Assembly (NCBI GenBank): GCA_026710545.1
Contig: JAPOQU010000069.1
Span: 3,791-67,790, forward strand
From: Gammaproteobacteria bacterium
Lineage (GTDB): Bacteria; Pseudomonadota; Gammaproteobacteria; Eutrophobiales; Eutrophobiaceae
Reading direction: 5' to 3'
Length of the DNA stretch: 64,000 nucleotides
Positions within the stretch are counted from its first letter, which is position 1; the number at the start of each line of letters is the position of its first letter. Below, piece after piece: positions 9,223 through 28,707 of the stretch. The position numbers were made by a program, and so were the translations under genes. The notes beneath the pieces were generated by a model. The model worked only from the letters and a program-made list of their open reading frames with translations, made no database searches and had not been told where the DNA came from.

Positions 9223-9528
9223 ATGAGAAAAGCTGTGTTTTCAATGGATACCGTTCATCCAATCTCTGATTTCAGCAGCAGGCCTGAAGAATATATTAAA
9301 CGGCTGAAAGCCACTGGGAAACCGGAAATCCTGACCGTCAATGGCAAGGCCGAAGTTATCATTCAGGATGCCCGGGCTTATGAGGATATGATGAATCTTC
9401 TGGACTCACTGGAAAAGACAGCTCATGCAGCCAGGGAACATGAGGAAGGGAAAGGGATTGCCGCCGACGATGCCTTTTGCACCTTAAGCAAACGCATCTC
9501 CGGCAAATTTCCCGATGCCGATCTATAA
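9223..9528 (+). CDS. Phd/YefM-family type II antitoxin
   Basis: 101-aa ORF with HPISDFSSRPEEYIKRLKATGKPEILTVNGKAEVIIQDARAYEDMMNLLDSLE. It overlaps the downstream toxin gene by 14 nt. Confidence 0.75.
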   Translation: MRKAVFSMDTVHPISDFSSRPEEYIKRLKATGKPEILTVNGKAEVIIQDARAYEDMMNLLDSLEKTAHAAREHEEGKGIAADDAFCTLSKRISGKFPDADL

Positions 9529-9832
9529 GATCAGTATCCCTCCCTCAGTCATCACAGAACTCGAAGATTATTTCGATTTTATAGCCCGGGATTCCATAAC
9601 CAACGCGATACGCTGGTACCGAAACATCCAGGATAAAATACTCTCCCTGAAACAAAATCCCAGGCGCTGCCCGGTAGCCATTGAAAGCCGCTATCGTAGT
9701 TACGAAATTCGACATCTTATAGTCGGGCAATATCGAGTGCTGTTTCGTATCCAGGGTGATACCGTAGAAGTGCTGCATGTCCGTCATGGGAGTAGAAAGA
9801 GAGAACTGCCTGGGTCATCACCGGATCGATGA
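9515..9832 (+). CDS. RelE/ParE-family type II toxin
   Basis: 105-aa ORF with IRWYRNIQDKILSLKQNPRRCP...YEIRHLIVGQYRVLFRIQGDTVEVLHVRHGSR, a typical ParE-like C-terminus. Confidence 0.8.
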   Translation: MPIYKISIPPSVITELEDYFDFIARDSITNAIRWYRNIQDKILSLKQNPRRCPVAIESRYRSYEIRHLIVGQYRVLFRIQGDTVEVLHVRHGSRKRELPGSSPDR

Positions 9833-11607: not shown

Positions 11608-12306
11608 ATGTCCGGATTTGACAAAACAGTAAACAGTTACGCCGAGGCGCTGGACGGACTGCAGGACGGCATGACCATCATCGCCGGCGGCTTCGGCCTG
11701 TGCGGCATCCCGGAAGGCTGCATCGCCCGTATCAGGGAAATGGGCGTGCGCGACCTGACCATCATCTCCAACAACTGCGGGGTGGACGACTTCGGCCTGG
11801 GCCTGTTGCTGGAACACAAGCAGATAAAGAAAATGGTGTCCTCCTACGTCGGCGAGAACGCCCTGTTCGAGGAACAACTGCTCAACGGCGAACTGGAAGT
11901 GGAACTCACGCCCCAGGGCACGCTGGCGGAGAAGATGCGGGCCGGCGGCGCCGGCATCCCGGCATTCTACACCGCCACCGGCTACGGCACACCCGTCGGG
12001 GAAGGCAAGGAGGTACGCGAGTTCAACGGCCGCCAATACATCCTGGAGGAAGCCGTCACCGGCGACTTCGCCATCGTCAAGGGCTGGAAGGCGGACCGTT
12101 ACGGCAACGTCATCTACCGGCACACGGCGCAGAATTTCAACCCCATGGCCGCCACCGCCGGCAAGATCACCGTGGTCGAAGTGGAGGAACTTGTGGAACC
12201 CGGTGAACTGGACCCCACCGGCATCCACACGCCGGGCATCTACGTGGACCGGCTCGTCCAGGGCACTTTTGAGAAACGCATCGAACAACGCACCATAACG
12301 GAGTAA
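11608..12306 (+). CDS. scoA: 3-oxoacid (succinyl-CoA:acetoacetate) CoA-transferase subunit A
   Basis: 232-aa ORF with [59 protein letters not shown]. Confidence 0.9.
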
Positions 12307-12310
12307 TCCC

Positions 12311-12967
12311 ATGGCACTCTCCCGTGAACAACTGGCAATGCGCGTCGCCCGTGAACTGCAGGACGGCTATTACGTCAACCTCGGCATCGGCATCCCCACC
12401 CTGGTCGCCAACTACATCCCTGACGGCATGGAAGTGATGCTGCAATCGGAAAACGGCCTGCTCGGCATGGGGCCGTTCCCCACCGAGGAGCAACTGGACG
12501 CGGACATGATCAACGCCGGCAAACAAACCGTTACGGCCATTACCGGCGCCTCCATCTTCAACTCCGCGGAATCCTTCGCCATGATCCGCGGCGGCCACGT
12601 GGACCTCACGGTACTGGGCGCATTCGAAGTGGACGTGGAGGGCAACATCGCCTCCTGGATGATCCCGGGCAAACTGATAAAAGGCATGGGCGGCGCCATG
12701 GACCTGGTTGCGGGCGCAGACAACATCATTGTTACCATGACCCATGCCAGCAAGAAAGGCGCATCGAAACTGCTGCCGAAATGTACACTGCCGCTGACCG
12801 GCGCCGGGTGTATTCACAAGGTGGTGACCGACCTGGCCTACGTCGAGATCGAGGACGGGAAGTTCTGGTTGAAGGAACGGGCGCCGGGGGTGAGTGTGGA
12901 TGAGATTGTGGCGAAGACTGCCGGGGAGATGGTGGTGCCGGAAACGGTCCCGGAGATGGGGTTTTGA
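12311..12967 (+). CDS. scoB: 3-oxoacid CoA-transferase subunit B (intact copy)
   Basis: 218-aa ORF with YVNLGIGIPTLVANYIP..LQSENGLLGMGP (catalytic Glu motif). It starts 4 nt after scoA. Confidence 0.9.
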   Translation: MALSREQLAMRVARELQDGYYVNLGIGIPTLVANYIPDGMEVMLQSENGLLGMGPFPTEEQLDADMINAGKQTVTAITGASIFNSAESFAMIRGGHVDLTVLGAFEVDVEGNIASWMIPGKLIKGMGGAMDLVAGADNIIVTMTHASKKGASKLLPKCTLPLTGAGCIHKVVTDLAYVEIEDGKFWLKERAPGVSVDEIVAKTAGEMVVPETVPEMGF

Positions 12968-12988
12968 GTAAGTCTTGACGCGTGGCTG

Positions 12989-13270
12989 CTATGATTTGAA
13001 AAATGTATATAGCTGGACAATAAAAAAAGCGATTGCAGGTAAACCTAAAAATAGAGTAAGAACCGATTTCAGTATCCAGTTTTTTAATTTCTCTATATCT
13101 TCCTTAGTAGCCATAGTGTCTGCCATATTTTCCATTCGCTCTTGAATTACAGCCAGCTGAATTTCAACATTGCGCAACCTGGCTTCCCAATCTCCAGATC
13201 CATTTCCATTATCATGCGCAACTGCGCGACTCCTTTCTGGGCGCCGACCAAACTCCGCAATATTAGACAC
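12989..13270 (-). CDS. hypothetical small protein: coiled-coil N-terminus plus C-terminal transmembrane helix (XhlA-like layout)
   Basis: 93 codons with a GTG start overlapping the upstream ORF stop by 8 nt. It reads ...ARLRNVEIQLAVIQERMENMADTMATKEDIEKLKNWILKSVLTLFLGLPAIAFFIV. The DNA is AT-rich. Confidence 0.45.
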   Translation of the reverse strand: MSNIAEFGRRPERSRAVAHDNGNGSGDWEARLRNVEIQLAVIQERMENMADTMATKEDIEKLKNWILKSVLTLFLGLPAIAFFIVQLYTFFKS

Positions 13271-13538
13271 TATTTTTCTTCTCCTGACGCGCTAACCATT
13301 CCCACAATGTATTGTTATGCCAGCCATCATACCACTCTACAGATATAACAATTCCAGTGACTTTTTCCTCGTCGTTCATCCCAACTATATCGGAAATTTC
13401 TGCTGTTATATCAACATCTTTACCTGAGAAAAAAGCCAAACGGTCGTCAACGATGTAGTACGAACTTGCAGGGAATTGTTTTAATTTTTCCCAATCGTCA
13501 GGAGTAGGTTCAGAGAGAATAATAGCAAAAGTAGCCAT
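13263..13538 (-). CDS. hypothetical small acidic cytoplasmic protein
   Basis: 91-aa ORF with no recognised motif. It is translationally coupled to 12989..13270. Confidence 0.45.
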   Translation of the reverse strand: MATFAIILSEPTPDDWEKLKQFPASSYYIVDDRLAFFSGKDVDITAEISDIVGMNDEEKVTGIVISVEWYDGWHNNTLWEWLARQEKKNSV

Positions 13539-13812
13539 ACAATATACGCTCAGCTATCCATCACGATAGCAGCTTATTTGTGAAAGAAAATATAGCTTTG
13601 ATTCAGTGAATAAAGTGTACCATCCTTACAAGGGTGAATCTATCTGTAGAATGTGGTATCCAACAAATTCTACAATAAAAACTTGTCAGAACTCATAAAT
13701 CACACAACTCACGCCGCCCTCGCAAACTCACCATCATTCTCATGATTGAGTTTCGACTTGGAATCACAGGTGTGCGAATAGCAACGCCATCCACGTACGT
13801 AATTTGTTATTG

Positions 13813-15759
13813 TTAACCGGTTAGGATTGCCTTTAACCTGTCATGCTGCTCCTTGATCCATTGCGCGACTTCCGGCCATTCACTTTCGTCGTCGCCGGTC
13901 CAGTGTCTTCGGACAGTCACTGACCTGCCTTTCATGCTCTCCCCCTCCAGGTTCTCTCCAAGTTCCTGGTCACTCATCTCTGTGCGGATAGCCCTTGAGT
14001 ATCCTTGTACTCGCCTCATCATTTCTTCCGCCGACTCGTCTCGGGTTTTCCAGACTTTGATATACAGCCAAAGCGATTCAGGATTTCCGACATATATGCC
14101 TATCCGGTCGCCGGTTGAGTTCAAAGCATCCGTCCATTGGTTTCCGCCTCGCCAGTCGTCCTTCTGTCCTGGTACACCACCCGTTTGTAATTTGAGAAAT
14201 CTCCAAAAGCGCTGAGAGTGGTTGTTGTCATCGAACTCAACATCGATCCTGACATCGCATCGTCTGCCCATTTCCTGACAACGCTCCGCGCTGGCCGGAT
14301 AGTCCCTTGCATAAGGATACAAGACGTACTCGCTATGACCCGGCACCGCGCGCAAGGTGCGTGTTCCGGCCATACTTCCGGCGGGATATCGACTAGCCGA
14401 TTGCAAGTCATAGGTAACTGCTTCCCCGGAGAGTCGTTCAGCGTTCGCCGGGTCCCGGTCCAGGAGCGTGGCAGCGACGTTCAGCACCATGTCGCTCGCA
14501 GCGCTCTCGGTACGCCATGGACTTTCTTCGATGCGCCACCTGAGACCCGAGTCACGTGCCTGCGTATCGCGCTTGCCGGCTCCCTGATCCTGCCACGGCC
14601 AGCAATCCAACGCCCTGAGTGTTAACTCTTCAGCGCTTCGTTCCAGCGCCTCTTCGTCCCATGTATTTTCTTGCGCGAGACGACGCGTAATACCTATTGC
14701 GCTCCTCTTATACATTTCCCGTTTTGCATTGAACGTGATAGTACCCATGCTCGAGTTCGTGGCATCTCCGCTCAAGGTCAGATTTGCGAGGCGGTCGCGA
14801 TAGCGTCCGTGTATTTCTTCAGCGCTGTCCCCCAAGTAGCTTCTCCACCCATTTGTCAACTTCTGCGGCATCACATGCTCAATCGTCAGGCGCTCCCGGG
14901 CCGGAGACTCTTCCTTATGTTCTGCTTCCATAAGCGCACATAACACCGCGAACGATGAACGGGTGGCACTGGCCCCGTAAGCCTTCCGGGTGCGGATGCC
15001 CTCACGAACTTCCTCATCACTTGGGACACCAACACGTGAGTTTCGGAGTCTTCGAATCCGGCCAAGCCAGTATTGCGGATAATCTTCATCAGTGTTTGGT
15101 CCAGGCCCATGGGCAAGCTCCGCCACAGATCTGTTCATCCCGGCTGTTGGCCGGTCTGCCAGCCATAGCCGGGTGATCCATGTTCCAATGCTTGAAATTA
15201 CTTCAGCCAATTCTTCACTTGTCGTTCCCGTAGCATCATTCCGTGAAGCGTCATCAAGTAGCCGCAACGCCAAGGGACGGTGAACATCAATCCCCATTGC
15301 CCGTAAGTGCAAGAGCTTTTGTTCGACTTTCTTGTCAGGATGTTTCCCTGCCGTGCCGGTAATTATGCCGTAGAGTGACGCAAGTCGTGCAAGTTCTCTA
15401 CAAAGAGCGGGGCGATCCTTGGCAAATCCCTGCTGTACTGCCCAGCGCCGCAGTCCTTCATAGGCTTGATCGATTCCGATAACCTCACCGGTATGCCAGC
15501 GTAAGAAGTCTCGAAGAAACGTGTCTATGGGTTCACTCGCGTGTTCTGCTCCCAGTGCCCGTTCTATATCTCGCCAGTGCTTGTCATGTAGATATTGCTG
15601 CTCCGCATCAGGGAGACCCATCAGCAGCCAGTTTTTGACCTTCTCGCTCTCGGTGAGAGGGCGACCGGTAGCGTTCAGACTCTCGAAGATCTGTTGAGGG
15701 TCTTCCTTATTGCCCAGGCCAATGGTGACTACCCGAAATCGTTCGAGCCCCTTGAGCAA
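13813..15759 (-). pseudogene. N-terminally truncated GmrSD-like type IV restriction protein (rear of DUF262, DUF1524 His-Me nuclease, DUF4268-like tail)
   Basis: It begins inside the DUF262 domain at IFESLNATGRPLTESEKVKNWLL, so the QR/DGQQR half is missing. It keeps the nuclease motifs LTIEHVMPQKL and DRLANLTLSGDATN. The upstream sequence switches abruptly to scoB homology at 15758. Confidence 0.75.
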
Positions 15760-16274
15760 ACGGCCTGCTCGGCATGGGCCCGTTCCCCACCGAGGAGCAA
15801 CTGGACGCGGACATGATCAACGCCGGCAAACAGACGGTGACGGCCATTACCGGCGCATCCATTTTCAGTTCCGCAGAATCCTTCGCCATGATCCGCGGCG
15901 GCCACGTGGACCTCACCGTGCTGGGCGCATTCGAAGTGGACGTGGATGGCAACATCGCCTCCTGGATGATCCCGGGCAAACTGATAAAAGGCATGGGCGG
16001 CGCCATGGACCTGGTGGCCGGCGCGGACAACATCATTGTTACCATGACCCACGCCAGCAAGAAAGGCGCCTCAAAGCTGTTGCCGAAATGTACACTGCCG
16101 CTGACCGGCGCCGGGTGTATTCACAAGGTGGTGACCGACCTGGCCTACGTGGAGATCAATGACGGGAAGTTCTGGTTGAAGGAACGGGCGCCGGGGGTCA
16201 GTGTTGATGAGATTGTGGCGAAAACTGCGGGGGAGATGGTGGTGCCGGAGACAGTGGTGGAGATGGGTTTTTAG
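15758..16274 (+). pseudogene. scoB: displaced 3' fragment of scoB (codons ~48-218), diverged duplicate of 12451..12967
   Basis: The 166-aa ORF 15774..16274 differs from the intact ScoB C-terminus at only 4 residues. The 5' part of the gene is absent. Homology continues ~8 nt past the stop. Confidence 0.9.
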
Positions 16275-16363
16275 TAAGTACAGCTTTTTCTCATATTAGG
16301 AGCAGTTTCCTATCGACCTCAAGCCACAGTGAGACGGCTTCTTCCATCCTCTCCATTAACTGG

Positions 16364-17428
16364 TCAACCAACCTGGTCTGGGTCATTTGTTACAGAAGCG
16401 GACAAATCTATTTGTTGACAACACCGCTCATGAAACGAAATGTAAAATTCGCGAAGTAATTGTTTTATGTCTGAGTCAATTTTGTAGTTAGCCTTCAGAT
16501 ATCGCGCTAGCATGAACATGCTGAGTACAACATAATCAGGAGTGAGTTCCTGAACAACTCCGCCATCTTTGGCCATGGGGTCATCCTTAAAAAGAGCATA
16601 TAGTAAGTTCAGAGTGGCCAAGGTTTCCTTGGCCGACCTGTCATTTTCGAAGTCTTGGTTTCCAATCCCATCTTTCACAACGGTCGCATCGATCCACTCG
16701 ACAATGGCATCGTCCTTGAGGTCAGTTACCCCTTTCGATTCCAACAGCACCATCCTCGCCAGCAAAGAGAGATGCTGCATCCGGCTATTAGGCCGGTTGA
16801 GAATGTTGAAGAAGCGATGTTTATCAGAATTCTTGTCTACAGGCTTATACGATTCGAAATCAAAAGTGATATCGTCAGCGTATTTCACAATGAAATTCCG
16901 GCCAAGGGAACTAAGGCGCGCATGAGCAATCTCCATTTGGTTAAGGCTTTCCCCTTGCTGCAATCGCCAAAAAATTTCCGTTGCAAGCTTCTGATGTTCA
17001 GGGTTGCGCGGATCTTCAATGTCGGTGATTTCATCAACATCGAACTCTTGCCGATCAATGTATCGCCGCACCTCTACTGGCAGTTTTGAATAGGTCTTAC
17101 CCGGAATGTCTGGATGGATAGATTTAAGCGATTTGGGGAGTATGATCTCATCAGCATAAAAACGCTGGACCGTAGTAATACGTTGCTGTCCATCAACGAC
17201 CTCCTGGATAGTAGTATCGCTATCAAGTCTTATCTTCCTGAGAACAATTTTCGGTACGTAATACCCACGAACAATACTATCAAGCAGACTCTGCTGCTTC
17301 TTTTTTGACCATACGGTTTTGCGCTGATATGGGGGGCGGGTAATATAATCATCTGGATATTCGTGGAAGTCCTTGATCTTTGTCTTGCTAGGGATGATCT
17401 TATAGTCGCGCGAGGGATCGAAAGCCAT
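16364..17428 (-). CDS. DUF262 (ParB/Srx-like) protein lacking any DUF1524/HNH nuclease domain
   Basis: 354-aa ORF with ITRPPYQRKTVWSKKKQQSLLDSIVRGYYVP, VVDGQQRITTV and FWRLQQGESLNQMEIAHARL. The C-terminal half is helical with no nuclease motif. Confidence 0.8.
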   Translation of the reverse strand: MAFDPSRDYKIIPSKTKIKDFHEYPDDYITRPPYQRKTVWSKKKQQSLLDSIVRGYYVPKIVLRKIRLDSDTTIQEVVDGQQRITTVQRFYADEIILPKSLKSIHPDIPGKTYSKLPVEVRRYIDRQEFDVDEITDIEDPRNPEHQKLATEIFWRLQQGESLNQMEIAHARLSSLGRNFIVKYADDITFDFESYKPVDKNSDKHRFFNILNRPNSRMQHLSLLARMVLLESKGVTDLKDDAIVEWIDATVVKDGIGNQDFENDRSAKETLATLNLLYALFKDDPMAKDGGVVQELTPDYVVLSMFMLARYLKANYKIDSDIKQLLREFYISFHERCCQQIDLSASVTNDPDQVG

Positions 17429-17722
17429 TTTATTTCTCCTTTATCGATAAGTTCATTTTACACATCGCTAATTGTTTAATGTTGGGGCGTAATATAATGA
17501 GATTCGGGGACATCCAAGATACTGGACGAATAACTTTACAAATTGTTCTATACACTTTGAAGTATTCGCAGTGTTTAGCACAGACGTGCTAGATGCTCCC
17601 CTGGAACATGAGGTTTAGTCGTGCCTTGTTTGAAGTGGTAGTCTACATACCGCAGCATACGTAGAACTCCCGTGCTACCAACAATGTGAATAACGAGAGT
17701 GAGCTTCTCTAAAGTCATACTT

Positions 17723-18808
17723 TTAGATTAAGCCTACAATCCGATTGGTTGCTATTGTACCGAGTCTAAAAAGTAACTCACTTTGAGCGGAGGCTTGTCT
17801 CCAAGAACGTGCGAGATCTGATTCCCACGGTGTAACAATAAGCTCGAAAGAACCGTCTGGAAGGCGGCGAAACATGACAGCAGAATCGGCATAGTTGAAT
17901 CCGCCTTGGGCGATTGTTGGGAGATTTAATCGCTCCATTCGGTTGTTGCCATGCCAAGTTAGGGGCCTATCGTTCCAAACTCGTGCAGCACTGCGCAGAG
18001 GTGGATGACCGATTGTTAGATTGTGCGGGTAGTCGTACTGGTTGAAATGAAAGCCAAAGAATGTATGCCCACCGCGTGGCAGTTCCAACTGATTTTGGGA
18101 CCCACCCTGTAATCCTTCCCCTTGAATCCACATTGCATTGTGATCGCCTGGATTGACAGCACCTGTTTCAATTACTGTTCGAAACAAAGGCAAATCGCCG
18201 TCGATGATGGGTGCCGGAGGCTCGACCGGCTCAGCTTCTGGTCCAACTGCGCCAGGTTGCGGCCGCTGCTGACGCGTGGCTTCGTATGTTGCCAGCAGTT
18301 CGTTCGAAAGGGCCATCGTTTCATGACCAGTTCGGGTAAACGCTGAGACGACTTCTCCAGATGCAACAGATTGCTGAGTCCAAGCTACCTCTGAATTCAC
18401 ACTGAGACCGCGACCGGTAAGGTTCGCCGACCCAATAAGCAAGTTGAAGGTATCGTCATTTTTTCCAAATGCGTACATTTTCGGATGGAATGCCCTTGAA
18501 GGGATCAAGGAACCATGTTCAAGCCTTTGCGTACCAGCGACCAGGACGCTTGCGTTATCAAGATCCAACCAATCGCGAAGAGCTTGTGGTTCGGTAAAGC
18601 CGAAGTCGAACGACGTGATAAGCAACTTTGGGATTGCAGCAAATGCCTCTCCGCCCAAAGAGTTGGCTACCGCGTCCAAGAGAATATTGGAGCCGCTACG
18701 TGTCACATATGCAGATGCCACCCGTAATTCGGTGGTATTTTGCCCGACAAGATCAACAATCGCATGCCGAATATTACCGGGTGCTGTCGAGTTTTGGATA
18801 ATTAACAT
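17723..18808 (-). CDS. PLD-superfamily (HKD) nuclease, restriction-endonuclease-like (BfiI/NgoFVII-type layout)
   Basis: 361-aa ORF with a single HKD motif, AFHPKMYAFGKNDDTFNLLIGSANLTGRGL, in the N-terminal half. The ~170-aa C-terminal domain is unassigned. The gene is divergent from the methyltransferase genes. Confidence 0.7.
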   Translation of the reverse strand: MLIIQNSTAPGNIRHAIVDLVGQNTTELRVASAYVTRSGSNILLDAVANSLGGEAFAAIPKLLITSFDFGFTEPQALRDWLDLDNASVLVAGTQRLEHGSLIPSRAFHPKMYAFGKNDDTFNLLIGSANLTGRGLSVNSEVAWTQQSVASGEVVSAFTRTGHETMALSNELLATYEATRQQRPQPGAVGPEAEPVEPPAPIIDGDLPLFRTVIETGAVNPGDHNAMWIQGEGLQGGSQNQLELPRGGHTFFGFHFNQYDYPHNLTIGHPPLRSAARVWNDRPLTWHGNNRMERLNLPTIAQGGFNYADSAVMFRRLPDGSFELIVTPWESDLARSWRQASAQSELLFRLGTIATNRIVGLI

Positions 18809-18940
18809 TTTGGTGGTCCATGACTATATGTCGTTGTTTTGGCTGGACATAGATCGTTACATTGACCCAGTAATATCATTCGATAGTGCGGAGTCAAAAC
18901 TCTTTTCCGAACAATACTCGGAATCGACAAGTAACTCAAC

Positions 18941-19010
18941 ACAGTGCACTATGGTCGATCCCGAAAAACATGCGAATCTTATCGATTTACATCATAGTGC
19001 ATCACTATGT
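18941..19010. promoter_or_regulatory. two related palindromes, CACAGTG-CACTATG (18941..18954) and CATAGTG-cat-CACTATG (18994..19010); candidate controller/RHH operators
   Basis: Read directly in the divergent nuclease/methyltransferase intergenic region, 54-120 nt upstream of the RHH ORF. Confidence 0.35.
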
Positions 19011-19063
19011 TGCGTTTGGGCAGAGAATCGGATAGAGTGAGCGAAAGATGAACATAGTGGTCG

Positions 19064-19273
19064 ATGGTCATGAAGGGAAGATACAGGAAATTAGGATTCC
19101 GGTTCACGGTGAACCTGATTGAAGACTATCACGATGTGCTTAAGGCATTTGACAACAAGCACGAAGTCTCAGTTTCTTGGGTGTTGCAGATAGCGATTGA
19201 AAATTATCTGCGTAGTTTCCCATCAGGTGTTATAGGAACGATACAGGCGCCCGCGGTTACAAGGTGTAATTAA
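19064..19273 (+). CDS. small ribbon-helix-helix-like protein (possible controller of the R-M module)
   Basis: 69-aa ORF with a basic N-terminus and strand-like LGFRFTVNL, followed by helices DYHDVLKAFDNKHEVSVSWVLQIAIENYL. The fold call is by pattern only. Confidence 0.4.
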   Translation: MVMKGRYRKLGFRFTVNLIEDYHDVLKAFDNKHEVSVSWVLQIAIENYLRSFPSGVIGTIQAPAVTRCN

Positions 19274-19315
19274 CCAGTGGGAATCCTGACATTGGAAAAT
19301 CGGTGGGAGGAGGGC

Positions 19316-21169
19316 ATGAAACATGCACAGCCTCGGAGTTCCGGTGCCAAAGAACTGTCTGTCGTTCTTGATACTCTCTATTCCAGAGAGCTTTCAGCTA
19401 AGCGTACGGGGCACCTCTACGGCGCATTTCCTTACCCAACCAAGATTTCTCCCGAAGCTATCGCCCTGTTTATCGCGGCCCATACTAAACCGGGTGACAC
19501 GGTTTTCGACGGTTTCGCCGGTAGTGGTACGACGGGCCTAGCCACTCTGCTATGTGAAGACCCGCCAGATGAACTACGTTCTGAGGCCGAGCGTCTCAAG
19601 CTCAATGTCACATGGGGTGCCCGCAACGCCGTTCTTTATGAACTCGGGGCCCTTGGTGCCTTTGTCGGGGAAACCCTGACGAACCCACCAGAACCGCTTT
19701 TGTTTCGTAGGGCAGCAGAAGAACTTTTACGAGACGCAGAAGTTAAGGACGGCTGGATATATGGTGCCGTAGATCCTGACGGATGTGAGGGTACCATTCG
19801 TTATGTCATCTGGTCTGATCTATTACGCTGTCCGGCGTGCTTTCAGAGAGTCAGCCTCTGGGATGCATGTGTGTACTTTAATCCCGCGCGGATCTCATCT
19901 CTTTTCTCGTGCCCGGTGTGCGATCATGAAGGACCACTCGATAATGTAGAACGTATCACCGAGAACAAATGGGATGACATCATCGGTGGGGAGCAAGTAC
20001 AGCGCGTACGCCGTCCTGCCCGTATTTATGGCGCTACTGGTAAAAGGCGCTGGTCGCGCCCAGCTACTCAGCACGATCTATTCTTACTGGAGCGTGTCGG
20101 GACCGAGCCGATCCCCGATTCAGTACCAGATATCGCGATACCATGGGGCGATCTTTACCGACGTGGTTATCATAAGGGAATCACACATCTCCACCAATTC
20201 TACACACGGCGTAACCTCTTCGTGTTTGCTCGACTGTGGGAACGCGCTTGCCGTTACGGAGGCACCCTTGGCAATGCAATGCGATTCTGGCTATTAAGCT
20301 ATAACGCCTCGCACGCCACGATCATGACCCGTGTCGTCGCGAAGTCCAAGCAGAAAGATCTAGTTGTGACAAGCGCCCAGCCTGGCGTGCTCTATATTAG
20401 CGGCCTTCCGGTCGAAAAGAATCTATTTGCCGGACTACGCCGCAAACTCTCCACTATTACTAGCGCGTTCGCGATCATTCATGGGCGTAAAAGCCGAGTA
20501 AATGTTCACCAGCGGTCAAGCTGCATTGTCAATCTTCCCGACCAGAGTATAGATTATGTGTTCACCGACCCTCCATTTGGAGGCAACATTCCCTACGCTG
20601 AAATTAATTTTCTGAATGAGGCTTGGCTTGACCGCTATACCGAACGCAATGAGGAAATTATCATCAGCAGAGCCCAGGAAAAAACAGTCGCCGAGTATCA
20701 GAATCTACTCAAGATGGCTCTTAGCGAAGTTCATCGTATTCTCAAGCCCACCGGCAAAGCTACGCTTGTATTTCACTCAGCATCCGCAGAAGTCTGGAAC
20801 GCCCTTCAATCCGCATACACCGATGCGGGATTCGGCGTTGAATGCACGAGTGTTCTCGAAAAAACCCAAGGCAGCTTTAAGCAGGTTACGACCAGCGGGT
20901 CGGTCCGGGGAGATCCTGTACTTCTACTCGGAAAGAATTCTGCCAAGCAGATCAGTTCGATGCCCGATGTGTGGACGGTAGCAGAGCAACTTTGGCAAGA
21001 AGCCATTTTATCCTTTGACCCTGGTGAACAGAATGTGCAGCGACTCTATTCACGACTGGTCAGGCATTTTCTGACTCATCATCAGCAGATACCTCTTGAT
21101 GCCGAAACATTTTACCAATGGTACCGAGAGCGACATTCAGTAGAGATTAACCACGGTGCAAAGTATTGA
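19316..21169 (+). CDS. N4/N6 DNA methyltransferase, motif I before motif IV (alpha-like order), with internal Cys4 zinc ribbon
   Basis: It has PTKISPEAIALFIAAHTKPGDTVFDGFAGSGTTGLA (AdoMet motif), CPACFQ..CPVCDHEG and DYVFTDPPFGGNIPYAE (catalytic DPPF). ATG 19316 follows the SD GGGAGGAGGG. The ORF track starts at GTG 19277. Confidence 0.8.
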   Translation: MKHAQPRSSGAKELSVVLDTLYSRELSAKRTGHLYGAFPYPTKISPEAIALFIAAHTKPGDTVFDGFAGSGTTGLATLLCEDPPDELRSEAERLKLNVTWGARNAVLYELGALGAFVGETLTNPPEPLLFRRAAEELLRDAEVKDGWIYGAVDPDGCEGTIRYVIWSDLLRCPACFQRVSLWDACVYFNPARISSLFSCPVCDHEGPLDNVERITENKWDDIIGGEQVQRVRRPARIYGATGKRRWSRPATQHDLFLLERVGTEPIPDSVPDIAIPWGDLYRRGYHKGITHLHQFYTRRNLFVFARLWERACRYGGTLGNAMRFWLLSYNASHATIMTRVVAKSKQKDLVVTSAQPGVLYISGLPVEKNLFAGLRRKLSTITSAFAIIHGRKSRVNVHQRSSCIVNLPDQSIDYVFTDPPFGGNIPYAEINFLNEAWLDRYTERNEEIIISRAQEKTVAEYQNLLKMALSEVHRILKPTGKATLVFHSASAEVWNALQSAYTDAGFGVECTSVLEKTQGSFKQVTTSGSVRGDPVLLLGKNSAKQISSMPDVWTVAEQLWQEAILSFDPGEQNVQRLYSRLVRHFLTHHQQIPLDAETFYQWYRERHSVEINHGAKY

Positions 21170-23288
21170 GGTGGTCAAGACTATAAGAAATACGGCTCGC
21201 GCTTACGAGCAAACGCTCGACCCGGGGCGCCGCAAGCAACTTGGTCAGTTTTTCAGCGGAGTACCCCTCGGCAAGCTGCTTGCACATCTTAGCTTTAACC
21301 CCGTTACTCGCACTGTCCTTGATCCCATGGCTGGTCATGGTGATCTGCTTGATGCTACTTGGGAGGTAGCCGTCGAACGCGGGATCACGCTGGAGAGGAT
21401 CGACGGCATTGAGATTGACGATTCTACCGCCGTGATTTGCCGCAACCGCCTCGCTTTAACCCCCACCAACGATAAGCGGCCTGAATCTGTGATCGTAACT
21501 GGGAATGCCTTTGAACCAGCTACATTAAAGTCCTTACCGATGAGTTCCTATGACTTGGTCATCACCAATCCTCCTTATGTGCGATATCAGGGACGCAAAG
21601 GGAGTGGTGACAGTTTGGATAATGCCCGCTCCGGGCTCAAAAAGGTCGTACAGAGTATTTCCGATGAAAGTAGCCGGATTGTCTGGAGTACTCTTGTACA
21701 AGGTTATTCTGGACTAGCCGACCTATCCATTCCAGCTTGGATTCTGGCCGGATTCATGGTTCGTCCTGGTGGACGGCTCGCACTGATCGTGCCTGCAACA
21801 TGGCGTTCGCGCGATTACGCAGACGTAATCCGCTATCTTCTCTTGCGCTATTTCGTGGTGGAGACTATCGTCGCTGATACTCAGCCAGGCTGGTTCTCTG
21901 ATGCACTGGTCCGCACAAACCTGATAGTAGCCCAACGCCTAATGGGTGAAGAAACCAGGCGGCCGCTCAGCGAAAAGAGTCACTGGACTGCAGCACGGTG
22001 GCTTCATATTTCTCCTAGTGCCGCGAATGACCATTCATTGGTTGGAAATGCTTTTGCGAGCGATCATCCAGAAGCAGCACTGTCAGAATGGTTGAAGAAA
22101 CCATCGAGAACTTCAATTGAAAGCATTGAAGTTCGTAACTTCGACCTCTGCCACGAATGGGCTACACTACAGTCACGTATTACCCGATACCGATGGTATC
22201 CAATGGTTGAAAGTTGCAGCAAAGACCTGTCATTATTTCCCGCATGGTCGAAGTCCGTTGCTCCAGTCCTGCCTGATGCGTTGCGTCAAGTTTTGCCCAC
22301 TGATGCTAAACCCGCCAACCTCGTTACACTAGAGGAGTCTGGAATCAAGGTCGGCCAAGGTCTGCGTACAGGCTGTAATGGATTCTTTTACGTCACCGTA
22401 TGCGGCGAAGGCGAAGGCGACATGATGCCGATTAGATCTTCGTCTGCTGTAGGAAATTGGACATTCGCAGTCTCGTCAGCCGCCCTTAGGCCTGTTCTAC
22501 GCCGTCAGTCGGAAATTGTACTGATAGAAAAGGGCAGCTTTCCGCCTGGCCGTGTGCTCAATTTGCGCGCATGGGTTCTTCCAGAAGATGTACAGCAGGT
22601 CGCAGATGCAAAGGCTGCATATGCATTGCGCCACGAAACCCCTCCACAGGTTATGCCCGCAGATTTGGCCGCATTTGTCCGTCATGCCGCTTCAGTTTCT
22701 ATAGTTGGCAGAGGCAGTAGCATACCAATTCCAGAACTCTCCGCTGTTCGAACAAATGTACGGCGCGCTCGCACCAATACCCTCACGCCGCGCTTCTGGT
22801 ATATGCTGCCGGATTTCAGACAGCGTCACTTACCTGCCGCGTTCGTTCCTAGGGTTAATCAGGGCACACCCTGGATTGAGTGTAACACCCGCCCACCTTT
22901 ACTCATCGACGCAAATTTCTCGACCTTCTGGGCAATTGATGATGTCTGGTCTCCCTTCGCAATTAAGGCTATGCTCAACAGCGTATGGTGTCGAGCCTAC
23001 ATGGAAGCCGCTGGCACTCCACTCGGCGGCGGCGCACTCAAGCTTGAAGCGACTCACCTCCGTCAGATGCCCATTCCTCTGCTCACAAACTGTGATCGCG
23101 TTGCACTGCATACCGCGGGAAAATACATGCGCCGGAACACTCAAGAGATTCAGGCTCAAATTGACCGCATTGTCTTGCAGGCACTCTATTCTGACAATCC
23201 TAGCGGGACTACGCTCTCAAATTTTGCCACCTATCTCACAGTTCAGATGAGCAAGCTCTGCGCCGCACGCCAAAGGACTGCGTCATAA
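21156..23288 (+). CDS. gamma-class N6-adenine DNA methyltransferase (Eco57I-MTase-like with TaqI-type target-recognition domain)
   Basis: It has LGQFFSGVPLGKLL..VLDPMAGHGDLL, DLVITNPPYVRYQG (NPPY) and GIKVGQGLRTGCNGFFYV. It overlaps the upstream MTase by 14 nt. Confidence 0.85.
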   Translation: MQSIEVVKTIRNTARAYEQTLDPGRRKQLGQFFSGVPLGKLLAHLSFNPVTRTVLDPMAGHGDLLDATWEVAVERGITLERIDGIEIDDSTAVICRNRLALTPTNDKRPESVIVTGNAFEPATLKSLPMSSYDLVITNPPYVRYQGRKGSGDSLDNARSGLKKVVQSISDESSRIVWSTLVQGYSGLADLSIPAWILAGFMVRPGGRLALIVPATWRSRDYADVIRYLLLRYFVVETIVADTQPGWFSDALVRTNLIVAQRLMGEETRRPLSEKSHWTAARWLHISPSAANDHSLVGNAFASDHPEAALSEWLKKPSRTSIESIEVRNFDLCHEWATLQSRITRYRWYPMVESCSKDLSLFPAWSKSVAPVLPDALRQVLPTDAKPANLVTLEESGIKVGQGLRTGCNGFFYVTVCGEGEGDMMPIRSSSAVGNWTFAVSSAALRPVLRRQSEIVLIEKGSFPPGRVLNLRAWVLPEDVQQVADAKAAYALRHETPPQVMPADLAAFVRHAASVSIVGRGSSIPIPELSAVRTNVRRARTNTLTPRFWYMLPDFRQRHLPAAFVPRVNQGTPWIECNTRPPLLIDANFSTFWAIDDVWSPFAIKAMLNSVWCRAYMEAAGTPLGGGALKLEATHLRQMPIPLLTNCDRVALHTAGKYMRRNTQEIQAQIDRIVLQALYSDNPSGTTLSNFATYLTVQMSKLCAARQRTAS

Positions 23289-23500
23289 ATTAAAATTTTG
23301 CTCAGGCCAGAAAGGCGACCAGGTACTACCGCGAACTATGTCAAGTCAGAATCATTATAGCGCTCTCTCAACTCAGCCAGCAAACGCGCTACTTGGTCGG
23401 TTGCATGGCCGCTTTCTTGGTCGGTTGCGGGAAACTCCCGGACAGCTTCAAGAATGGTTTCCAGCGTAAAAACAATAATCAGAACTGGACAATTTTATGC

Positions 23501-23725: not shown

Positions 23726-23965
23726 TGTTCACTTTCAAATGATTCTGACTCAGGGATAAATCATATCATATTCATAGGGGAGAAATTACTACTACTGCCA
23801 TTCAAGGTAGGGCAATCTGCAATCCTTTAACGGCTGTTAAATTTCAACCATACACTATATTACATCCATAAAACGTGCAAACAATCACGTTTTACCCACG
23901 TGAAACGTGATCATATACCACATTTTTGCTATGATTCCATCTCGTAATCACTATAAAGATGTCTT

Positions 23966-25285
23966 ATGCGGCGCGATATCGAACAACAACTCCTCCAATG
24001 GAAAGACTCGGACAGGCGCAAGCCCCTGGTCTTGCGCGGCGCGCGCCAAACCGGGAAAACCTATTCCCTGAGAGAGTTCGGCCAACAGCACTACAAGCGC
24101 CTTGCCTACCTGAACTTTGAAGAGACGGCGTCCGCCTCTCAGCTTTTCCAGGCGGACCTGGATCCGCATCGTATCATCCCGGAAATCAGCCTGATGCTGG
24201 ACCTGCCCATCGTTCCGGCTGAGACGTTGATCGTTTTTGATGAGGTCCAGGCTTGTCCCAATGCGCTTACCAGCCTGAAATACTTTGCCGAGAAAGCCGG
24301 CGAGTACCATGTTGCGGCGGCAGGTTCGTTGCTGGGCGTTAAACTGGGCAAACCGGCGAGCTTTCCGGTGGGGAAAGTGAATTTCCTGGATTTGTATCCG
24401 CTCAGCTTCTGTGAGTTCCTGGATGCCCTGGATAAAAGCCGGTTGCGTGAGCATATCGATACCATCGACAGGTTAAGCCCACTCCCCGCGCCCATTCACG
24501 AGCAGTTGATTCACCTGTTGAAGGTCTACACCTTTACCGGGGGGATGCCGGAAGCGGTCATGCACTACCGGGAAAACCAGGACTTGCATAGCGTCAGAAC
24601 AATACAGAGGGAAGTGCTGGACGCCTACCTGCTGGACTTTTCCAAGCACGCCAATCCCCGCGAGGTCATGAAAATTACCACTGTCTGGAACCAGGTCCAA
24701 AGCCAACTGGCAAAGGAAAACAAGAAATTTATCTTTTCGGCGGTTCGTAAAAGCGCCCGGGGGCGTGACTATGAGAGCGCCATTCAATGGTTGCTGGATG
24801 CGGGGCTGATCTACAAATCAGTGAAAATTTCCGCCCCCAGGTTGCCGATTGAGGCGTATGCCCAATCCAATATATTCAAGATCTACCTGCTGGACCCCGG
24901 CCTGCTGGCAGCGATGGCCGACATTCCTGCCCGCATTCTGATTGAGGGTGATCGGCTGTTTACCGAATACAAGGGAGCTTTCATTGAAAACCTGGCCGCG
25001 GCCACCCTGGTCGGCGCTCATGGGAAACAGCTATATTACTGGGCCAGCGAAAACCTGGCTGAAGTCGATTTCGTCGTTTCCTACGAGCATGAGCTTTATC
25101 CGTTGGAGGTGAAAGCAGGAATTTCAAGGAAGAAAAAGAGCCTGCTCGCCTATGATGACAGGTATCATCCCTCCAAGCTGGTCAGGACGACACTGATGAA
25201 CCTGCGGCAGGATGGCAGAATAGTCAATATTCCGTTGTACCTGTTACACAGGTTTCCGGAGATTGTTCTTGGGGATTCACCTTGA
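23966..25285 (+). CDS. AAA+ ATPase with DUF4143-type C-terminal domain
   Basis: 439-aa ORF with KPLVLRGARQTGKTY (Walker A), LIVFDEVQ (Walker B) and C-terminal AEVDFVV...YPLEVKAG, typical of this family. Confidence 0.8.
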   Translation: MRRDIEQQLLQWKDSDRRKPLVLRGARQTGKTYSLREFGQQHYKRLAYLNFEETASASQLFQADLDPHRIIPEISLMLDLPIVPAETLIVFDEVQACPNALTSLKYFAEKAGEYHVAAAGSLLGVKLGKPASFPVGKVNFLDLYPLSFCEFLDALDKSRLREHIDTIDRLSPLPAPIHEQLIHLLKVYTFTGGMPEAVMHYRENQDLHSVRTIQREVLDAYLLDFSKHANPREVMKITTVWNQVQSQLAKENKKFIFSAVRKSARGRDYESAIQWLLDAGLIYKSVKISAPRLPIEAYAQSNIFKIYLLDPGLLAAMADIPARILIEGDRLFTEYKGAFIENLAAATLVGAHGKQLYYWASENLAEVDFVVSYEHELYPLEVKAGISRKKKSLLAYDDRYHPSKLVRTTLMNLRQDGRIVNIPLYLLHRFPEIVLGDSP

Positions 25286-25307
25286 GCAGCATTAAGTATC
25301 CTGGGCA

Positions 25308-25626: not shown

Positions 25627-25869
25627 ATGATTACAATTAATGTAAACGAAGCGCGTACCAGGTTGGATAACCTGATTGATGAAGCATCAAAAACCCACAA
25701 ACCGATTCTCATTGTCGGTATCAGAAACAACGTGGTTTTACTCGCTGAAGAGGATTGGAAGACCATCAACGAGACCCTCTACCTGGTTTCAACTCCCGGT
25801 ATGCGAGAGTCCATCATCGAGGGGATGGAGACCAGCCTGGAAGAATGTGACAAGGCACTTGACTGGTAG
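25627..25869 (+). CDS. Phd/YefM-family antitoxin (orphan; no cognate toxin gene follows)
   Basis: 80-aa ORF with MITINVNEARTRLDNLIDEASKTHKPILIVGIRNNVVLLAEEDWKTINETLYL. Confidence 0.8.
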   Translation: MITINVNEARTRLDNLIDEASKTHKPILIVGIRNNVVLLAEEDWKTINETLYLVSTPGMRESIIEGMETSLEECDKALDW

Positions 25870-25908
25870 TGCGAGAAAGTGTACAGAAATGTTCCGGCGA
25901 ACCATGGC

Positions 25909-26487
25909 TCATTTCCTCAGTTCAGGAAAGATCCGGCCGAAACCCATACTGAGTAGAAAATCTCTCAAGCTGTCTTCTACCGTACAGGCCCGCATAAGAC
26001 CGTCTTCACCCAGTTGTTTATAGATAGACCTGGCATCAAGCCCCTTGAAATACTCAGGCCAGATTTTAGCCAGTTCGGGTAATGACGCATCGGCAGGAGG
26101 TCTTTTATTCCCACATCCGGGAAAGTGTCTCAACAGGAATGCTTCAAAATTTGGCTCGCTATAGACCAACTTCACATTATCTTCTGCGATTAACGGTCTT
26201 ATCCTGTTATCTCTATCATTAGAACGGCCCAGCTTATCTGAGTCCAGCATAATAGCCTTTACCAGGTAGTCTCCGTGGTTCCTTGAATTCCGTTTCATCA
26301 GCCTGATCGACTCCTCGACTACTTTCAGTGGATCGCCCCCGCCGGTCACATTGTTGCAATCGATATGTATTGGTAAATTATGGTAATCCGCTATTTGTTG
26401 CAGGTATCGCCCGTAACTTCTTTCGCTGAACCCCTCGGTCCCCAGGAAAATCCTCTTTCTCCGCTTTCTTCCCTGCATTGGCAACAA
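25909..26487 (-). CDS. RloB-like (Toprim-type) protein, AbiLii-like
   Basis: 192-aa ORF with RIFLGTEGFSERSY (Toprim Glu region), AIMLDSDKL (DxD) and YSEPNFEAFLLRHF (compare the RloB SNPCFE.WLLLHF pattern). It starts 3 nt after the ATPase gene. Confidence 0.7.
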   Translation of the reverse strand: MLPMQGRKRRKRIFLGTEGFSERSYGRYLQQIADYHNLPIHIDCNNVTGGGDPLKVVEESIRLMKRNSRNHGDYLVKAIMLDSDKLGRSNDRDNRIRPLIAEDNVKLVYSEPNFEAFLLRHFPGCGNKRPPADASLPELAKIWPEYFKGLDARSIYKQLGEDGLMRACTVEDSLRDFLLSMGFGRIFPELRK

Positions 26488-26490
26488 ACC

Positions 26491-27705
26491 TCAACCGATA
26501 TTCGGCACGGCGCCGAATACGCCACCCAGGTACTTTTTGTAGTAGTTGTCTACTCTTCTGACTCCGGCGATGTCTTTTAACCCATATACCTGGGTTCTGC
26601 CATCAGGAGTCTTCTCGGTGAAATAGATTTCCTCTTTTTCCAGATGTTCCAGTAACGACGCATTGTGGCATGCTATGAATAACTGCGCGTTATTTGGGTT
26701 GGTTCGTTCATCGTGGAACCTGCCGATGATTTCAGGTATCAGGGCAGGATGAATATCATTGTCAACTTCATCCAGTACAAGTAATCCACCTGTTTCCAAT
26801 GTATAACGTATCAAGGGGAAGAGTTTAAAAAACTTTTGTGTACCCTGTGATTCAAACTCGTATGCCAGTTCGCTGTTTAACCCGGTATGTTGGAAAAGAG
26901 GCATTGGTACATGATTATGATTTGTACCGATGACAACTTTGTCGATACCCAAATCCAGCATCCGTATCTCACTGTTCAGTTCTTTAAGGACTTCATTGTC
27001 AGACATATAGATGTCGATAGTATCATTCAAGTCAGGATCATATTTTTGCAGAATAGAGACGTTCGTGAAAACAGTATTCACCACGGATGTAAAGGATTTG
27101 GAGATTATATGATTATATTGAACCAGGGTAGGTATGACACTGGCATTATCCCGAAATGTCTGCGGCGGATAATCCTTCACTTTTACTCTGAATTCAGATG
27201 AATCCTTTATCTGGTCCCCTTCGCGATGGAACAGCCTGCGGAATTTACCCTCCGGTGCAAAATACAAACTTTCTGACTTTACGATGAGATTTAGTTGTAA
27301 CTTAAGAGGATTTTTATGACTAGGCGCGTTTCTTAATACCAAACTATATCGATAAATGCATTGCTTCCCACCCTCTATTAAGTTGCCATCGAATTCGACT
27401 TCAAATCGTGAAATTCCCATCTGGCTGTCAAAATCTGCAAACGGAAATATGGGCAAATTATTTGTTGGAGGTTGATTAAATGACTCGGTTAAAAACCACT
27501 TTAAAAATCCCAATGCACGTAATACGGTCGTCTTACCTGATGCGTTAGCGCCAAATATGGAGACGACTTTGGGAATCCTGGTAGCAGATATTTCCTTATT
27601 TATGGCAAAGACAGGCAAATCCGGCGCATTGCTGGGCACCGCAAGATCAAGAACCTGTATATCCTTAATCGAATAGAAGTTCTCGATTGATATTTTTCTT
27701 AACAT
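26491..27705 (-). CDS. AAA_21/ABC-type ATPase (RloA/AbiLi-like)
   Basis: 404-aa ORF with IFGANASGKTTVLRALGF (Walker A) and GLLVLDEVDNDIHPALIPEII (Walker B/D-loop). Confidence 0.8.
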   Translation of the reverse strand: MLRKISIENFYSIKDIQVLDLAVPSNAPDLPVFAINKEISATRIPKVVSIFGANASGKTTVLRALGFLKWFLTESFNQPPTNNLPIFPFADFDSQMGISRFEVEFDGNLIEGGKQCIYRYSLVLRNAPSHKNPLKLQLNLIVKSESLYFAPEGKFRRLFHREGDQIKDSSEFRVKVKDYPPQTFRDNASVIPTLVQYNHIISKSFTSVVNTVFTNVSILQKYDPDLNDTIDIYMSDNEVLKELNSEIRMLDLGIDKVVIGTNHNHVPMPLFQHTGLNSELAYEFESQGTQKFFKLFPLIRYTLETGGLLVLDEVDNDIHPALIPEIIGRFHDERTNPNNAQLFIACHNASLLEHLEKEEIYFTEKTPDGRTQVYGLKDIAGVRRVDNYYKKYLGGVFGAVPNIG

Positions 27706-27813
27706 GACATTACGACAAAAAAGATACTTATTTGCGAATTTAACGTGCTATGAACACTCGTTAAATGAAATATAAGACAATTTTTTGCCGATGTCAATAT
27801 TTAACAGATCCTT

Positions 27814-28707
27814 TTACTCCCCCTCCAGCACCCCCTGACAAGCAGCCGGCAAATCGGCCATCATGATTTCGGGCGGTTGATCCTCCGGCGCCCGCGGCGG
27901 CGGGTACAGCGCCTCATCGGTAAACCACCAGTCCAGTTCCTCATCACAGCCGTCACCTTCGGGCGGTGCTTCCTGGTCAAGGCACGCGCCTTCATTTGGA
28001 CAATGCAAGCGGACATGAAAATGTGAGTCATGGCCCCACCATGGCCGCACCTTGCGCAGCCAGTCAACATCATCTTCTCCTCCGTCCTCGCAAAGCCGGC
28101 GCTTGATCGCCGCGTTCACGAAGATGCGGGCAACGGATTCATCCCGCGCCGCGGCTTCGATAACCTGCGAGTGCGCACCGGTCCAATAACCGTTCACATG
28201 CAACCGGTTTAACGCAACCACTGAAGGAGAACTGATCTTCTCCCGTTCCGCCACGCTCAGTTCCAGGCTGTCCGGCGCACGCAGCCAGATATCGGCGTCA
28301 AGGCCGATCTGGTGCGAACGGTGGCTGGAGACCATGGGCCCGCCGCGCGCATGGCTGATGTCGCCCACGTACAGGCCGGGCCAGCCGGCAGAATGGGCTG
28401 CGCGGGACAACCGCTCTATGAATGCAATCATTTCGGGATGGCCCCAGTTGCGGTTGCGGGACAGCCGCATCGCCTGCCAGCCCGGCCCTGATTCGGCAAG
28501 CTGTGCCGCCCCGGCCAGGCAGCCTGCGGCGTAACCGCCGAACGGAGCGGGCGCAGTGTTCGTCGGCGCATCCACCGCGCTGAAGGCGAACTTGGCCGGT
28601 TCCTCGTGCTGTGCGCCGGCGCTGAATGTGAGAATGAGGCTGACGCCGAACACCGCTACCAGCCCGTTGCGACAGACCGCCGGACAGTTTCTAAGCATGC
28701 TTTTCAA
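27814..28707 (-). CDS. mepA: penicillin-insensitive murein endopeptidase (M74)
   Basis: 297-aa ORF with a signal peptide, SSHRSHQIGLDADIW and WGHDSHFHVRLHCP. Confidence 0.85.
   Translation of the reverse strand: MKSMLRNCPAVCRNGLVAVFGVSLILTFSAGAQHEEPAKFAFSAVDAPTNTAPAPFGGYAAGCLAGAAQLAESGPGWQAMRLSRNRNWGHPEMIAFIERLSRAAHSAGWPGLYVGDISHARGGPMVSSHRSHQIGLDADIWLRAPDSLELSVAEREKISSPSVVALNRLHVNGYWTGAHSQVIEAAARDESVARIFVNAAIKRRLCEDGGEDDVDWLRKVRPWWGHDSHFHVRLHCPNEGACLDQEAPPEGDGCDEELDWWFTDEALYPPPRAPEDQPPEIMMADLPAACQGVLEGE

Follow-up and report, generated by a model that had tools for sequence, protein, structure and literature searches.

A diverged scoB remnant with the signature of a microhomology-mediated joint in an apparently integrase-free defence hotspot of a gammaproteobacterium

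We analysed a 64,000-nucleotide (nt) stretch of gammaproteobacterial DNA (Eutrophobiaceae; assembly GCA_026710545.1, contig JAPOQU010000069.1, positions 3,791 to 67,790), here called the window, in which the 3' part of the core gene scoB occurs twice. The second copy, scoB', begins where a GmrSD-family restriction-like gene is cut off. The two copies are alleles of one gene, the joint lies on an 11-nt microhomology, the GmrSD gene is intact in relatives, the block that differs from a close relative has definable boundaries, and there is no integrase or att site. From these comparisons we give about even odds (a probability of roughly 0.5) to a history in which the GmrSD gene and the DNA between it and scoB (segment A) were resident, and a block made of scoB' (allele B), a HicB remnant, a defence cargo and a B-type AAA_14/DUF4143 allele was swapped in beside them.

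The 3' end of scoB recurs as a diverged allele

Alignment showed that nt 12451-12967 of the window recur at 15758-16274 in the same orientation, without gaps and at an offset of 3307 nt. The upstream copy (copy A, 12451..12967, +) is the end of an intact scoB (allele A, 12311..12967, +) that encodes 218 amino acids (aa), the same length as in relatives, and lies beside scoA in the left core flank (11608..12306, +; CoA-transferase subunit A, Pfam CoA_trans, 1e-74). The downstream copy (copy B) comprises codons 48-218 and the stop codon of scoB. The copies showed 35 mismatches in 517 nt (93.2% identity, 6.8% different). Homology starts abruptly at 12451/15758 and ends with the stop codon, which is TGA in copy A and TAG in copy B; past the stop, copy B keeps a native 3' flank that matches relatives for ~7 nt, to 16281, and scoB' with this flank spans 15758..16281 (+). 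Copy B contains no frameshift, stop or indel. Among the relatives compared, a second scoB segment was found only in the window and in a close relative, L081.

The copies have 171 codons in common, of which 30 differ, and only four of these non-synonymously (N84S, E110D, E181N and P214V). Non-synonymous divergence (dN) was 0.0156 and synonymous divergence (dS) 0.258 by the method of Nei and Gojobori (NG86). The resulting dN/dS of 0.06 is far from ~1 and within the range of 0.02-0.11 seen between intact scoB genes. An earlier note on this DNA, made by eye from the sequence alone, had reported the intact scoB, an ungapped repeat with some 30-35 substitutions and the same four replacements, and had taken the copies for alleles diverged under purifying selection in different genomes and not for a local duplicate decaying in place. 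All of this agrees with the alignment.

We then compared copy B with scoB alleles tabulated from relatives that were recovered through exact-protein look-ups. Polymorphisms common to the scoB alleles of other strains made up 29 of the 35 differences, all four B-type residues were present in intact scoB of relatives (N181 and V214 in L094, for example), and the nucleotides unique to copy B were synonymous third-position changes in 6/6 cases. Since relatives have the B-type residues in intact genes and every B-unique change is synonymous, copy B is a foreign allele. It evolved inside a working gene of another genome and has been a fragment too briefly for neutral decay. Duplication of the scoB 3' end in place, followed by decay, would suit two copies of the same orientation lying 3.3 kb apart, but is hardly credible given a dN/dS that shows no relaxed constraint, the lack of indels and stops, the sharing of most differences with other strains, and the native 3' flank and HicB remnant that accompany copy B.

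The C-terminus of the protein reads ...ETVPEMGF in copy A, ...ETVVEMGF in copy B and ...EVVVEMGF in every other allele examined. Over its last ~125 nt (from 12839/12844 to 12967) intact scoB has a distinct A-type haplotype that is linked to segment A. In both the window and L081 this A-type end is linked to GmrSD and to a small-ORF region (93 and 91 aa). The scoB' of L081 is a third allele, 95.2% identical to copy A and 94.3-94.4% identical to copy B. Exact look-up of the 166-aa scoB' ORF gave no match, and an exact 51-nt B-allele pattern had no match in JGI metagenomes. A scan of GTDB genomes with scoB returned only relatives of <=87% aa identity (Pseudomonas, Stutzerimonas and metagenome-assembled genomes, MAGs), and the synteny fahA-maiA-scoAB...mepA was found in none of the best 30 GTDB scoB loci examined.

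The joint bears the signature of microhomology and truncates a GmrSD-family gene

At its left edge copy B meets a truncated gene of the GmrSD family (type IV restriction-like, 648 aa, 13813..15759, -), whose ORF begins exactly at the joint. The window tracks the GmrSD gene of L081 up to 15768 and scoB from 15758, giving an 11-nt overlap of the two parents. These 11 nt, AAACGGCCTGC (15758..15768, +), are common to GmrSD (L081 15138-15148) and scoB (12451-12461, within copy A). They are the sole shared 11-mer and the single longest k-mer shared between the GmrSD region and scoAB, which also have 59 8-mers and 944 6-mers in common. In shuffled sequences the longest shared k-mer was typically 10-11 nt. 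The existence of a shared 11-mer is on this basis chance, and the signal lies in its use at the joint. We read the junction as carrying the signature of a microhomology-mediated illegitimate joint; the earlier note had likewise proposed an illegitimate joint between GmrSD and scoB at this point.

The truncated protein retains the Pfam domain GmrSD_C and the tail of GmrSD_N (positions 159-199 only), and aligns to residues 171-818 of the L081 protein with 3 aa mismatches. The loss amounts to 170 of 818 residues (21%); the earlier note had placed it correctly at 15758 but had put it at half of the protein when it is a fifth. Without most of its DUF262/GmrSD_N domain, the protein is probably inactive. 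The intact form, which PADLOC assigned to Orf5/HEC-06, is an 818-aa protein whose gene adjoins scoB in the relatives L081, L103, L107 and L108. The L107 copy (L107 10001-12449) is split into 617 + 180 aa on a 4.6-Mb long-read contig. We rejected this split as an independent inactivation, since the neighbouring AAA_14/DUF4143, GST and AFOR genes are also split, which probably reflects indel error.

An apparent clone-mate differs from the window by one discrete block

L081 is a 57.9-kb ENA contig that encodes identical scoA, scoB and 91-aa proteins. Upstream of the repeat, the window and L081 were ~0.2-0.4% divergent, with discrete patches of clustered single-nucleotide polymorphisms (SNPs), a pattern that we take to be that of clone-mates, each with its own recombination imports. 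Segment A showed 0 differences over 12839-13645 (807 nt) and 6 SNPs over 13640-15768 (2129 nt). The AAA_14/DUF4143 region, on the other side of the joint, showed 91 SNPs in 23860-25290 (6.4%). The last dense SNP was at 25267 and the next at 25618, and only 2 differences were found in the ~960 nt that lead to the end of the L081 locus (26263). SNP density dropped from 6.4% to ~0.2% between 25267 and 25618, which would suit a homologous anchor on the right, as judged against the one relative L081 and given the inferred polarity. From ~25300, through Phd and the AbiL pair towards mepA, the window again matched L081 as clonal frame up to 26263.

The window and L081 thus differ by one discrete block that runs from the joint (15758) to about 25270-25600. 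Its counterpart in L081 holds the GmrSD N-terminus, a scar, a Fic cassette and an AAA_14 allele of its own. Because L081 shares the clonal frame on both sides as well as segment A, and a single block differs, segment A would have been resident and the homologous crossover would have lain downstream. The earlier note had treated everything from 16283 to ~27800 as one segment B. That segment is composite: ~16283-25290 does differ from L081, and the DNA from 25300 onward is clonal or ancestral.

The scar of L081 has a different structure. Its intact GmrSD gene is followed by 225 nt, the first 111 of which are common to other GmrSD loci, and then by a 73-nt internal piece of scoA (L081 15875-15947, equal to window 11890-11962 at 98.6% identity). 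This scoA' leads through an 8-nt microhomology, CATCCCGG, into a scoB 3' fragment that starts at the equivalent of 12415, 36 nt earlier than the fragment of the window, and to the right of which lie the Fic cassette and AAA_14/DUF4143. The joints of L081 therefore fall elsewhere than that of the window in both partners (scoA 11890; scoA 11962/scoB 12415). Since L081 has an intact GmrSD gene and then a scoA'/scoB' scar, a scoB remnant can stand to the right of segment A without truncation of GmrSD.

L081 carries the 11-mer in cis at 15138 (GmrSD) and at 15976 (scoB'), 838 nt apart, and a simulated 838-nt deletion between these copies matched the window joint at 102/103 nt. The earlier note had derived the duplication and the truncation from the same event; on this comparison the two may have had separate origins. 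In the DNA that follows the joint, the window and L081 carry the two scoB' alleles of 94.3-94.4% identity described above, and their cargo is also different. L081 further carries a 1684-nt insertion sequence (IS; L081 11336-13019, DDE_Tnp_1 transposase of 448 aa) that has terminal inverted repeats and is flanked by a duplicated 6-bp target, CTATCT. It sits between the 91-aa ORF and GmrSD, with its insertion point at window 13640-13645, and is absent from the window.

The scoB-mepA interval appears to be an integrase-free defence hotspot

The gene sets between scoB and mepA differed among the window, L094, L103 and L108. Differing cargo was also present beside scoB in L081 and L107, where mepA is not within the locus. 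L094, with 95% identical flanks, had quite different cargo. L103, with flanks ~87-88% identical, showed the unstacked order scoB-GmrSD-HicB-AAA_14/DUF4143-RHH-RloB-AAA_21-mepA, and the gene order close to mepA was conserved in both L103 and L108. The L103 GmrSD gene is 85% identical to that of the window, diverged about as much as the flanks, and because of this parallel divergence GmrSD would be an old resident of the position next to scoB.

L107 and L108 gave another picture. Their flanks are 80-88% identical to the window, yet their GmrSD module (window 13728-15768) is 98% identical. Between themselves they share scoB, GmrSD and ~300 nt at 97.6%, against 84-90% in the flanks. These values indicate that a scoB-linked GmrSD restriction module has recently spread between lineages, apparently by homologous recombination in the flanks, and they bear out the suggestion of the earlier note that scoB and GmrSD travel together.

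GC content is ~60% in the core and only 38-55% in the scoB-mepA interval, and PADLOC matches in the interval were of GmrSD type, PDC-S01, AbiL and a PglX-like methyltransferase. None of the ORFs of 12968-27813 had a recombinase domain, the intervals of L081 and L103 likewise had none, and the window interval contained no tRNA, tmRNA or Rfam element. The only transposases were those of IS elements in the intervals of L081, L094 and L108. With the same core flanks and a strain-variable defence cargo, the interval has the features of an integrase-free defence hotspot.

Gene content of the window locus

To the left of the repeat lie homogentisate-pathway genes, a Phd/ParE pair, fahA, maiA and scoAB. 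The left part of segment A holds two small ORFs (93 + 91 aa, overlapping by 8 nt; 12989..13538, -; 38-40% GC) that had no match in Pfam, NCBIfam or PADLOC. Both were called in short contigs of the same strain. In L081 the region aligns without interruption, with only the 91-aa ORF called; L107 and L108 lack the region and have a ~140-nt spacer in its place. The layout of the pair resembles that of a toxin-antitoxin pair.

Directly after scoB' lies an 87-nt fragment of a HicB antitoxin gene (16297..16382, -; VDQLMERMEEA..LWLEV), which overlaps the 3' end of the following DUF262 gene. L103 carries an intact HicB gene to the right of GmrSD. The fragment is an older scar that arrived with allele B, and the position of HicB in L103 suggests an earlier loss of GmrSD and of part of HicB in the strain from which this allele came.

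The cargo of segment B (16364..23288) encodes a DUF262-only protein (NsnA-like), a PLD/NgoFVII-like nuclease, a PglX-like methyltransferase and a second N6-type methyltransferase. Searches, which included plasmids, found no close relatives of this cargo elsewhere; a scan with the DUF262 protein returned only relatives of <=60% and no B-type donor. Searches of plasmids, the only such collection covered (phages were not searched), with segments A and B gave only distant scoB or methyltransferase matches and no vehicle. The cargo is followed by the AAA_14/DUF4143 gene (23966..25285, +; PADLOC PDC-S01), and then, within 25627..28707, by a Phd antitoxin, RloB/AbiLii, AAA_21/AbiLi and the core gene mepA.

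The Phd/ParE pair on the left (9223-9832) lies in a low-GC patch (44-48%) just upstream of fahA. At the same position L094 has a type I restriction-modification subunit, Fic, a SIR2-domain gene and DUF87/HerA-like genes, L107 has a Gp49/HI1420 pair, and L108 has Phd/ParE. The position looks like a second variable hotspot, ~3 kb from the scoB-mepA one.

Proposed history and its alternatives

In the history that we favour, the cassettes of this hotspot would be exchanged between strains of an uncultured lineage by homologous recombination, with scoAB as the left arm and AAA_14/DUF4143, the AbiL pair and mepA as the right. GmrSD and segment A would already have stood beside scoB in the lineage of the window when a block from another strain replaced the DNA to the right of GmrSD. 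The incoming block would have consisted of the 3' part of scoB (allele B), the HicB remnant, the DUF262/PLD/methyltransferase cargo and the AAA_14/DUF4143 allele that diverges by 6%. On the right it would end in a homologous crossover near 25270-25600, and on the left in the illegitimate joint at the 11-nt AAACGGCCTGC, which put resident GmrSD codon ~170 next to foreign scoB codon 47, and which would have destroyed GmrSD and left the 517-nt scoB' scar. Which DNA was resident, whether one step or two were taken, and what the transfer vehicle was are the parts of this account that we infer.

Two routes could lead to this outcome. The first would be a single event of homology-facilitated illegitimate recombination (HFIR) anchored on the right. 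The second would start with a homologous cassette exchange that used an older scoA'/scoB' scar of the L081 type as its left arm; the 838 nt between the 11-nt direct repeats would then have been deleted. Use of the longest available repeat at the joint suits the second route, and an allele difference of 5.7% that starts 30 nt from the joint suits the first. Both routes fit, and the first is at most slightly ahead.

Several points weigh against this history. Over 12307-12838 there are 20 differences between the window and L081, which become identical only from 12839, so the segment-A module has met different scoB 5' backgrounds. The 5.7% difference between the scoB' alleles of the window and L081 begins at site 12481, so the second route would need a left crossover confined to the first 30-66 nt of the scar, or a longer ancestral scar. 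A difficulty for the first route is that a homologous scoB' arm would have been available in a resident like L081. The polarity depends on a single close relative, the metagenomic contig L081. An equally short history can be written in which the clone ancestor had the B block, L081 imported the whole scoB-to-AAA_14 block and the window gained segment A; it needs near-identical donors of segment A, which are plausible in a local population. Finally, look-ups and scans found no strain with intact scoB(B) followed by HicB'-DUF262, and no independent contig covers the joint (15642-16262).

The earlier note had proposed the opposite polarity, in which scoB(B)-HicB'-segment B-mepA was resident and an incoming scoB(A) with segment A recombined homologously upstream and joined its GmrSD gene illegitimately to resident scoB codon 47. 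In a variant, a donor would have released a 3.3-kb circle by excision between its two 11-nt repeats, and a single crossover in scoB would have integrated it. The joint would be identical in either direction, scoB and GmrSD demonstrably move together between lineages, as L107 and L108 show, and the scoB 5' background beside the A-type scoB end and segment A does differ between the window and L081; the circle variant can also draw on the presence of both 11-nt direct repeats in cis in every genome with this GmrSD beside scoB. However, L081 shares segment A at clonal-frame divergence, so the donor would have to be only 0.2-0.3% from the L081 copy, and a separate swap of the whole scoB-to-AAA_14 block would be needed in L081 or in the ancestor of the window. 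The comparison of the scoB-mepA interval across relatives thus favours a resident segment A, and we regard the opposite polarity as unlikely, though it keeps a real share of the probability.

The sole apparent donor-like haplotype for that polarity was L089 (ENA ERZ27241796 k141_31254), in which scoB is B-like over 12526-12773, A-like from 12844 and linked to segment A. We rejected it as a donor haplotype or gene-conversion product, and it is best explained as an assembly chimera. At the start of this contig stand an Illumina TruSeq adapter and the 5' end of a foreign scoB. Elsewhere it matches the window fully apart from 19 B-type SNPs, and these coincide exactly with the 'bubbles' that lie inside the outer forks of the two copies, as expected from bubble-popping by an assembler. 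Short-read metagenome assembly across this repeat can yield chimeras, as L089 shows.

The same question arises for the window, whose sequence comes from a 79.7-kb MAG-type contig of the sample series that also gave L089: a chimeric read or contig could have joined a segment-A strain to a segment-B strain across the stretch that no other contig covers. We consider this improbable. An 11-nt overlap cannot make an edge in graphs with k>=21 and is too short for a misjoin in de Bruijn or overlap assembly, the island is flanked on either side by clonal frame that matches L081 and so points to one lineage, a comparable scar is present in the independently assembled L081, and the truncated 648-aa ORF has been recorded in exactly this form on 2 contigs. 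In related samples, independent short contigs also cover 11829-15642 and 16262-17505 at 100% identity, the latter including the B-specific stop region beside the HicB remnant and DUF262. Site-specific integration at the scoB 3' end, with a replacement gene end and the repeats as attL and attR, has in its favour that a direct repeat of a gene 3' end around an insert is the classic geometry. It is nevertheless very improbable, as the repeat, instead of a short identical core, consists of 517 nt of coding sequence diverged by 7%, the right joints of the window and L081 lie at different positions in both partners, and segments A and B contain no integrase or recombinase. The earlier note had named this mechanism as the alternative to its own, and the lack of integrase, tRNA, tmRNA and att core, with the different joints of the relative, speaks for the note on this point.

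Two further ideas go beyond the favoured history. Remnants such as scoA'/scoB' might act as internal homology arms, or 'docking sites', for incoming scoB-linked cassettes, which would pair with the remnant and not with the true scoB, so that modules are stacked and not replaced; the distal cassette would be swapped or added while the module next to scoB is kept. The difference between the window and L081, which is exactly the block from the scoB' remnant to the AAA_14/DUF4143 gene, is as this idea would predict, and we hold it only tentatively, as rather doubtful. Selection for loss of the GmrSD N-terminus, on the grounds that the incoming cassette brought two DNA methyltransferases, is a weaker possibility.

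Discussion

The locus offers a base-by-base record of how anti-phage clusters may be rebuilt without mobility genes. Most exchange would proceed by homologous recombination in conserved flanking or internal genes, and microhomology joints would occasionally stack modules. Scars of this kind give rare, direct evidence of a process that can mostly only be inferred for integrase-free hotspots, and they could be used to order acquisition events. If core-gene remnants do act as recombination arms, this would help to explain the modularity of defence islands.

The setting resembles the core defence hotspots cDHS1 and cDHS2 of Pseudomonas aeruginosa. The discussion of those hotspots proposes that whole regions could be transferred by homologous recombination through their conserved flanks, and argues that such transfer would leave no scars derived from mobile genetic elements (PMC10250203). 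Like them, the scoB-mepA interval is a fixed site between core genes, with strain-variable cargo, a GC content lower than that of the core and no integrase. Here, however, the flanks are scoB and mepA and the organism is another one. Unlike in that account, a scar is visible, and it marks an exchange that bypassed the outer flank.

HFIR is known from the natural transformation of Acinetobacter baylyi, Streptococcus pneumoniae and Pseudomonas stutzeri, and occurs at 10^-2 to 10^-3 of homologous transformation with microhomologies of 3-10 bp (as summarised in PMC6382021). The window joint is similar in that it lies at a short GC-rich microhomology between otherwise unrelated sequences, would have a homologous anchor on the other side (near 25270-25600, or upstream with the opposite polarity) beside which foreign DNA was captured, and separates DNA from different genomes, to judge by the 6.8% allele difference with its dN/dS of 0.06. 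In contrast to those events, the microhomology is 11 nt, at or above the quoted range, and is the longest available, and the foreign end is a fragment of a core gene, which results in a partial gene duplication.

RecA-independent deletion between short direct repeats, by replication slippage or short-homology deletion, keeps one copy of the repeat at the joint. This is what the window would show relative to L081, which has both 11-nt repeats in cis where the window has one copy at its joint. The scoB' alleles of the window and L081, however, are 5.7% apart and their cargo is different. Because of this allele difference a plain deletion is insufficient, and an exchange of allele and cassette is also needed.

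Some islands mobilised by integrases duplicate the 3' end of their target gene, which may be a tRNA, tmRNA or protein gene. As in such islands, a direct repeat of a gene 3' end brackets the insert and the upstream copy is intact. Unlike them, the window has no integrase, its repeat is long and diverged, and the junctions vary between relatives. On sequence grounds, the scar thus resembles the products of HFIR, of short-repeat deletion or of both, in a setting like that of the known core defence hotspots; it is a new and fairly ordinary instance of known processes, and leaves the current understanding of them unchanged.

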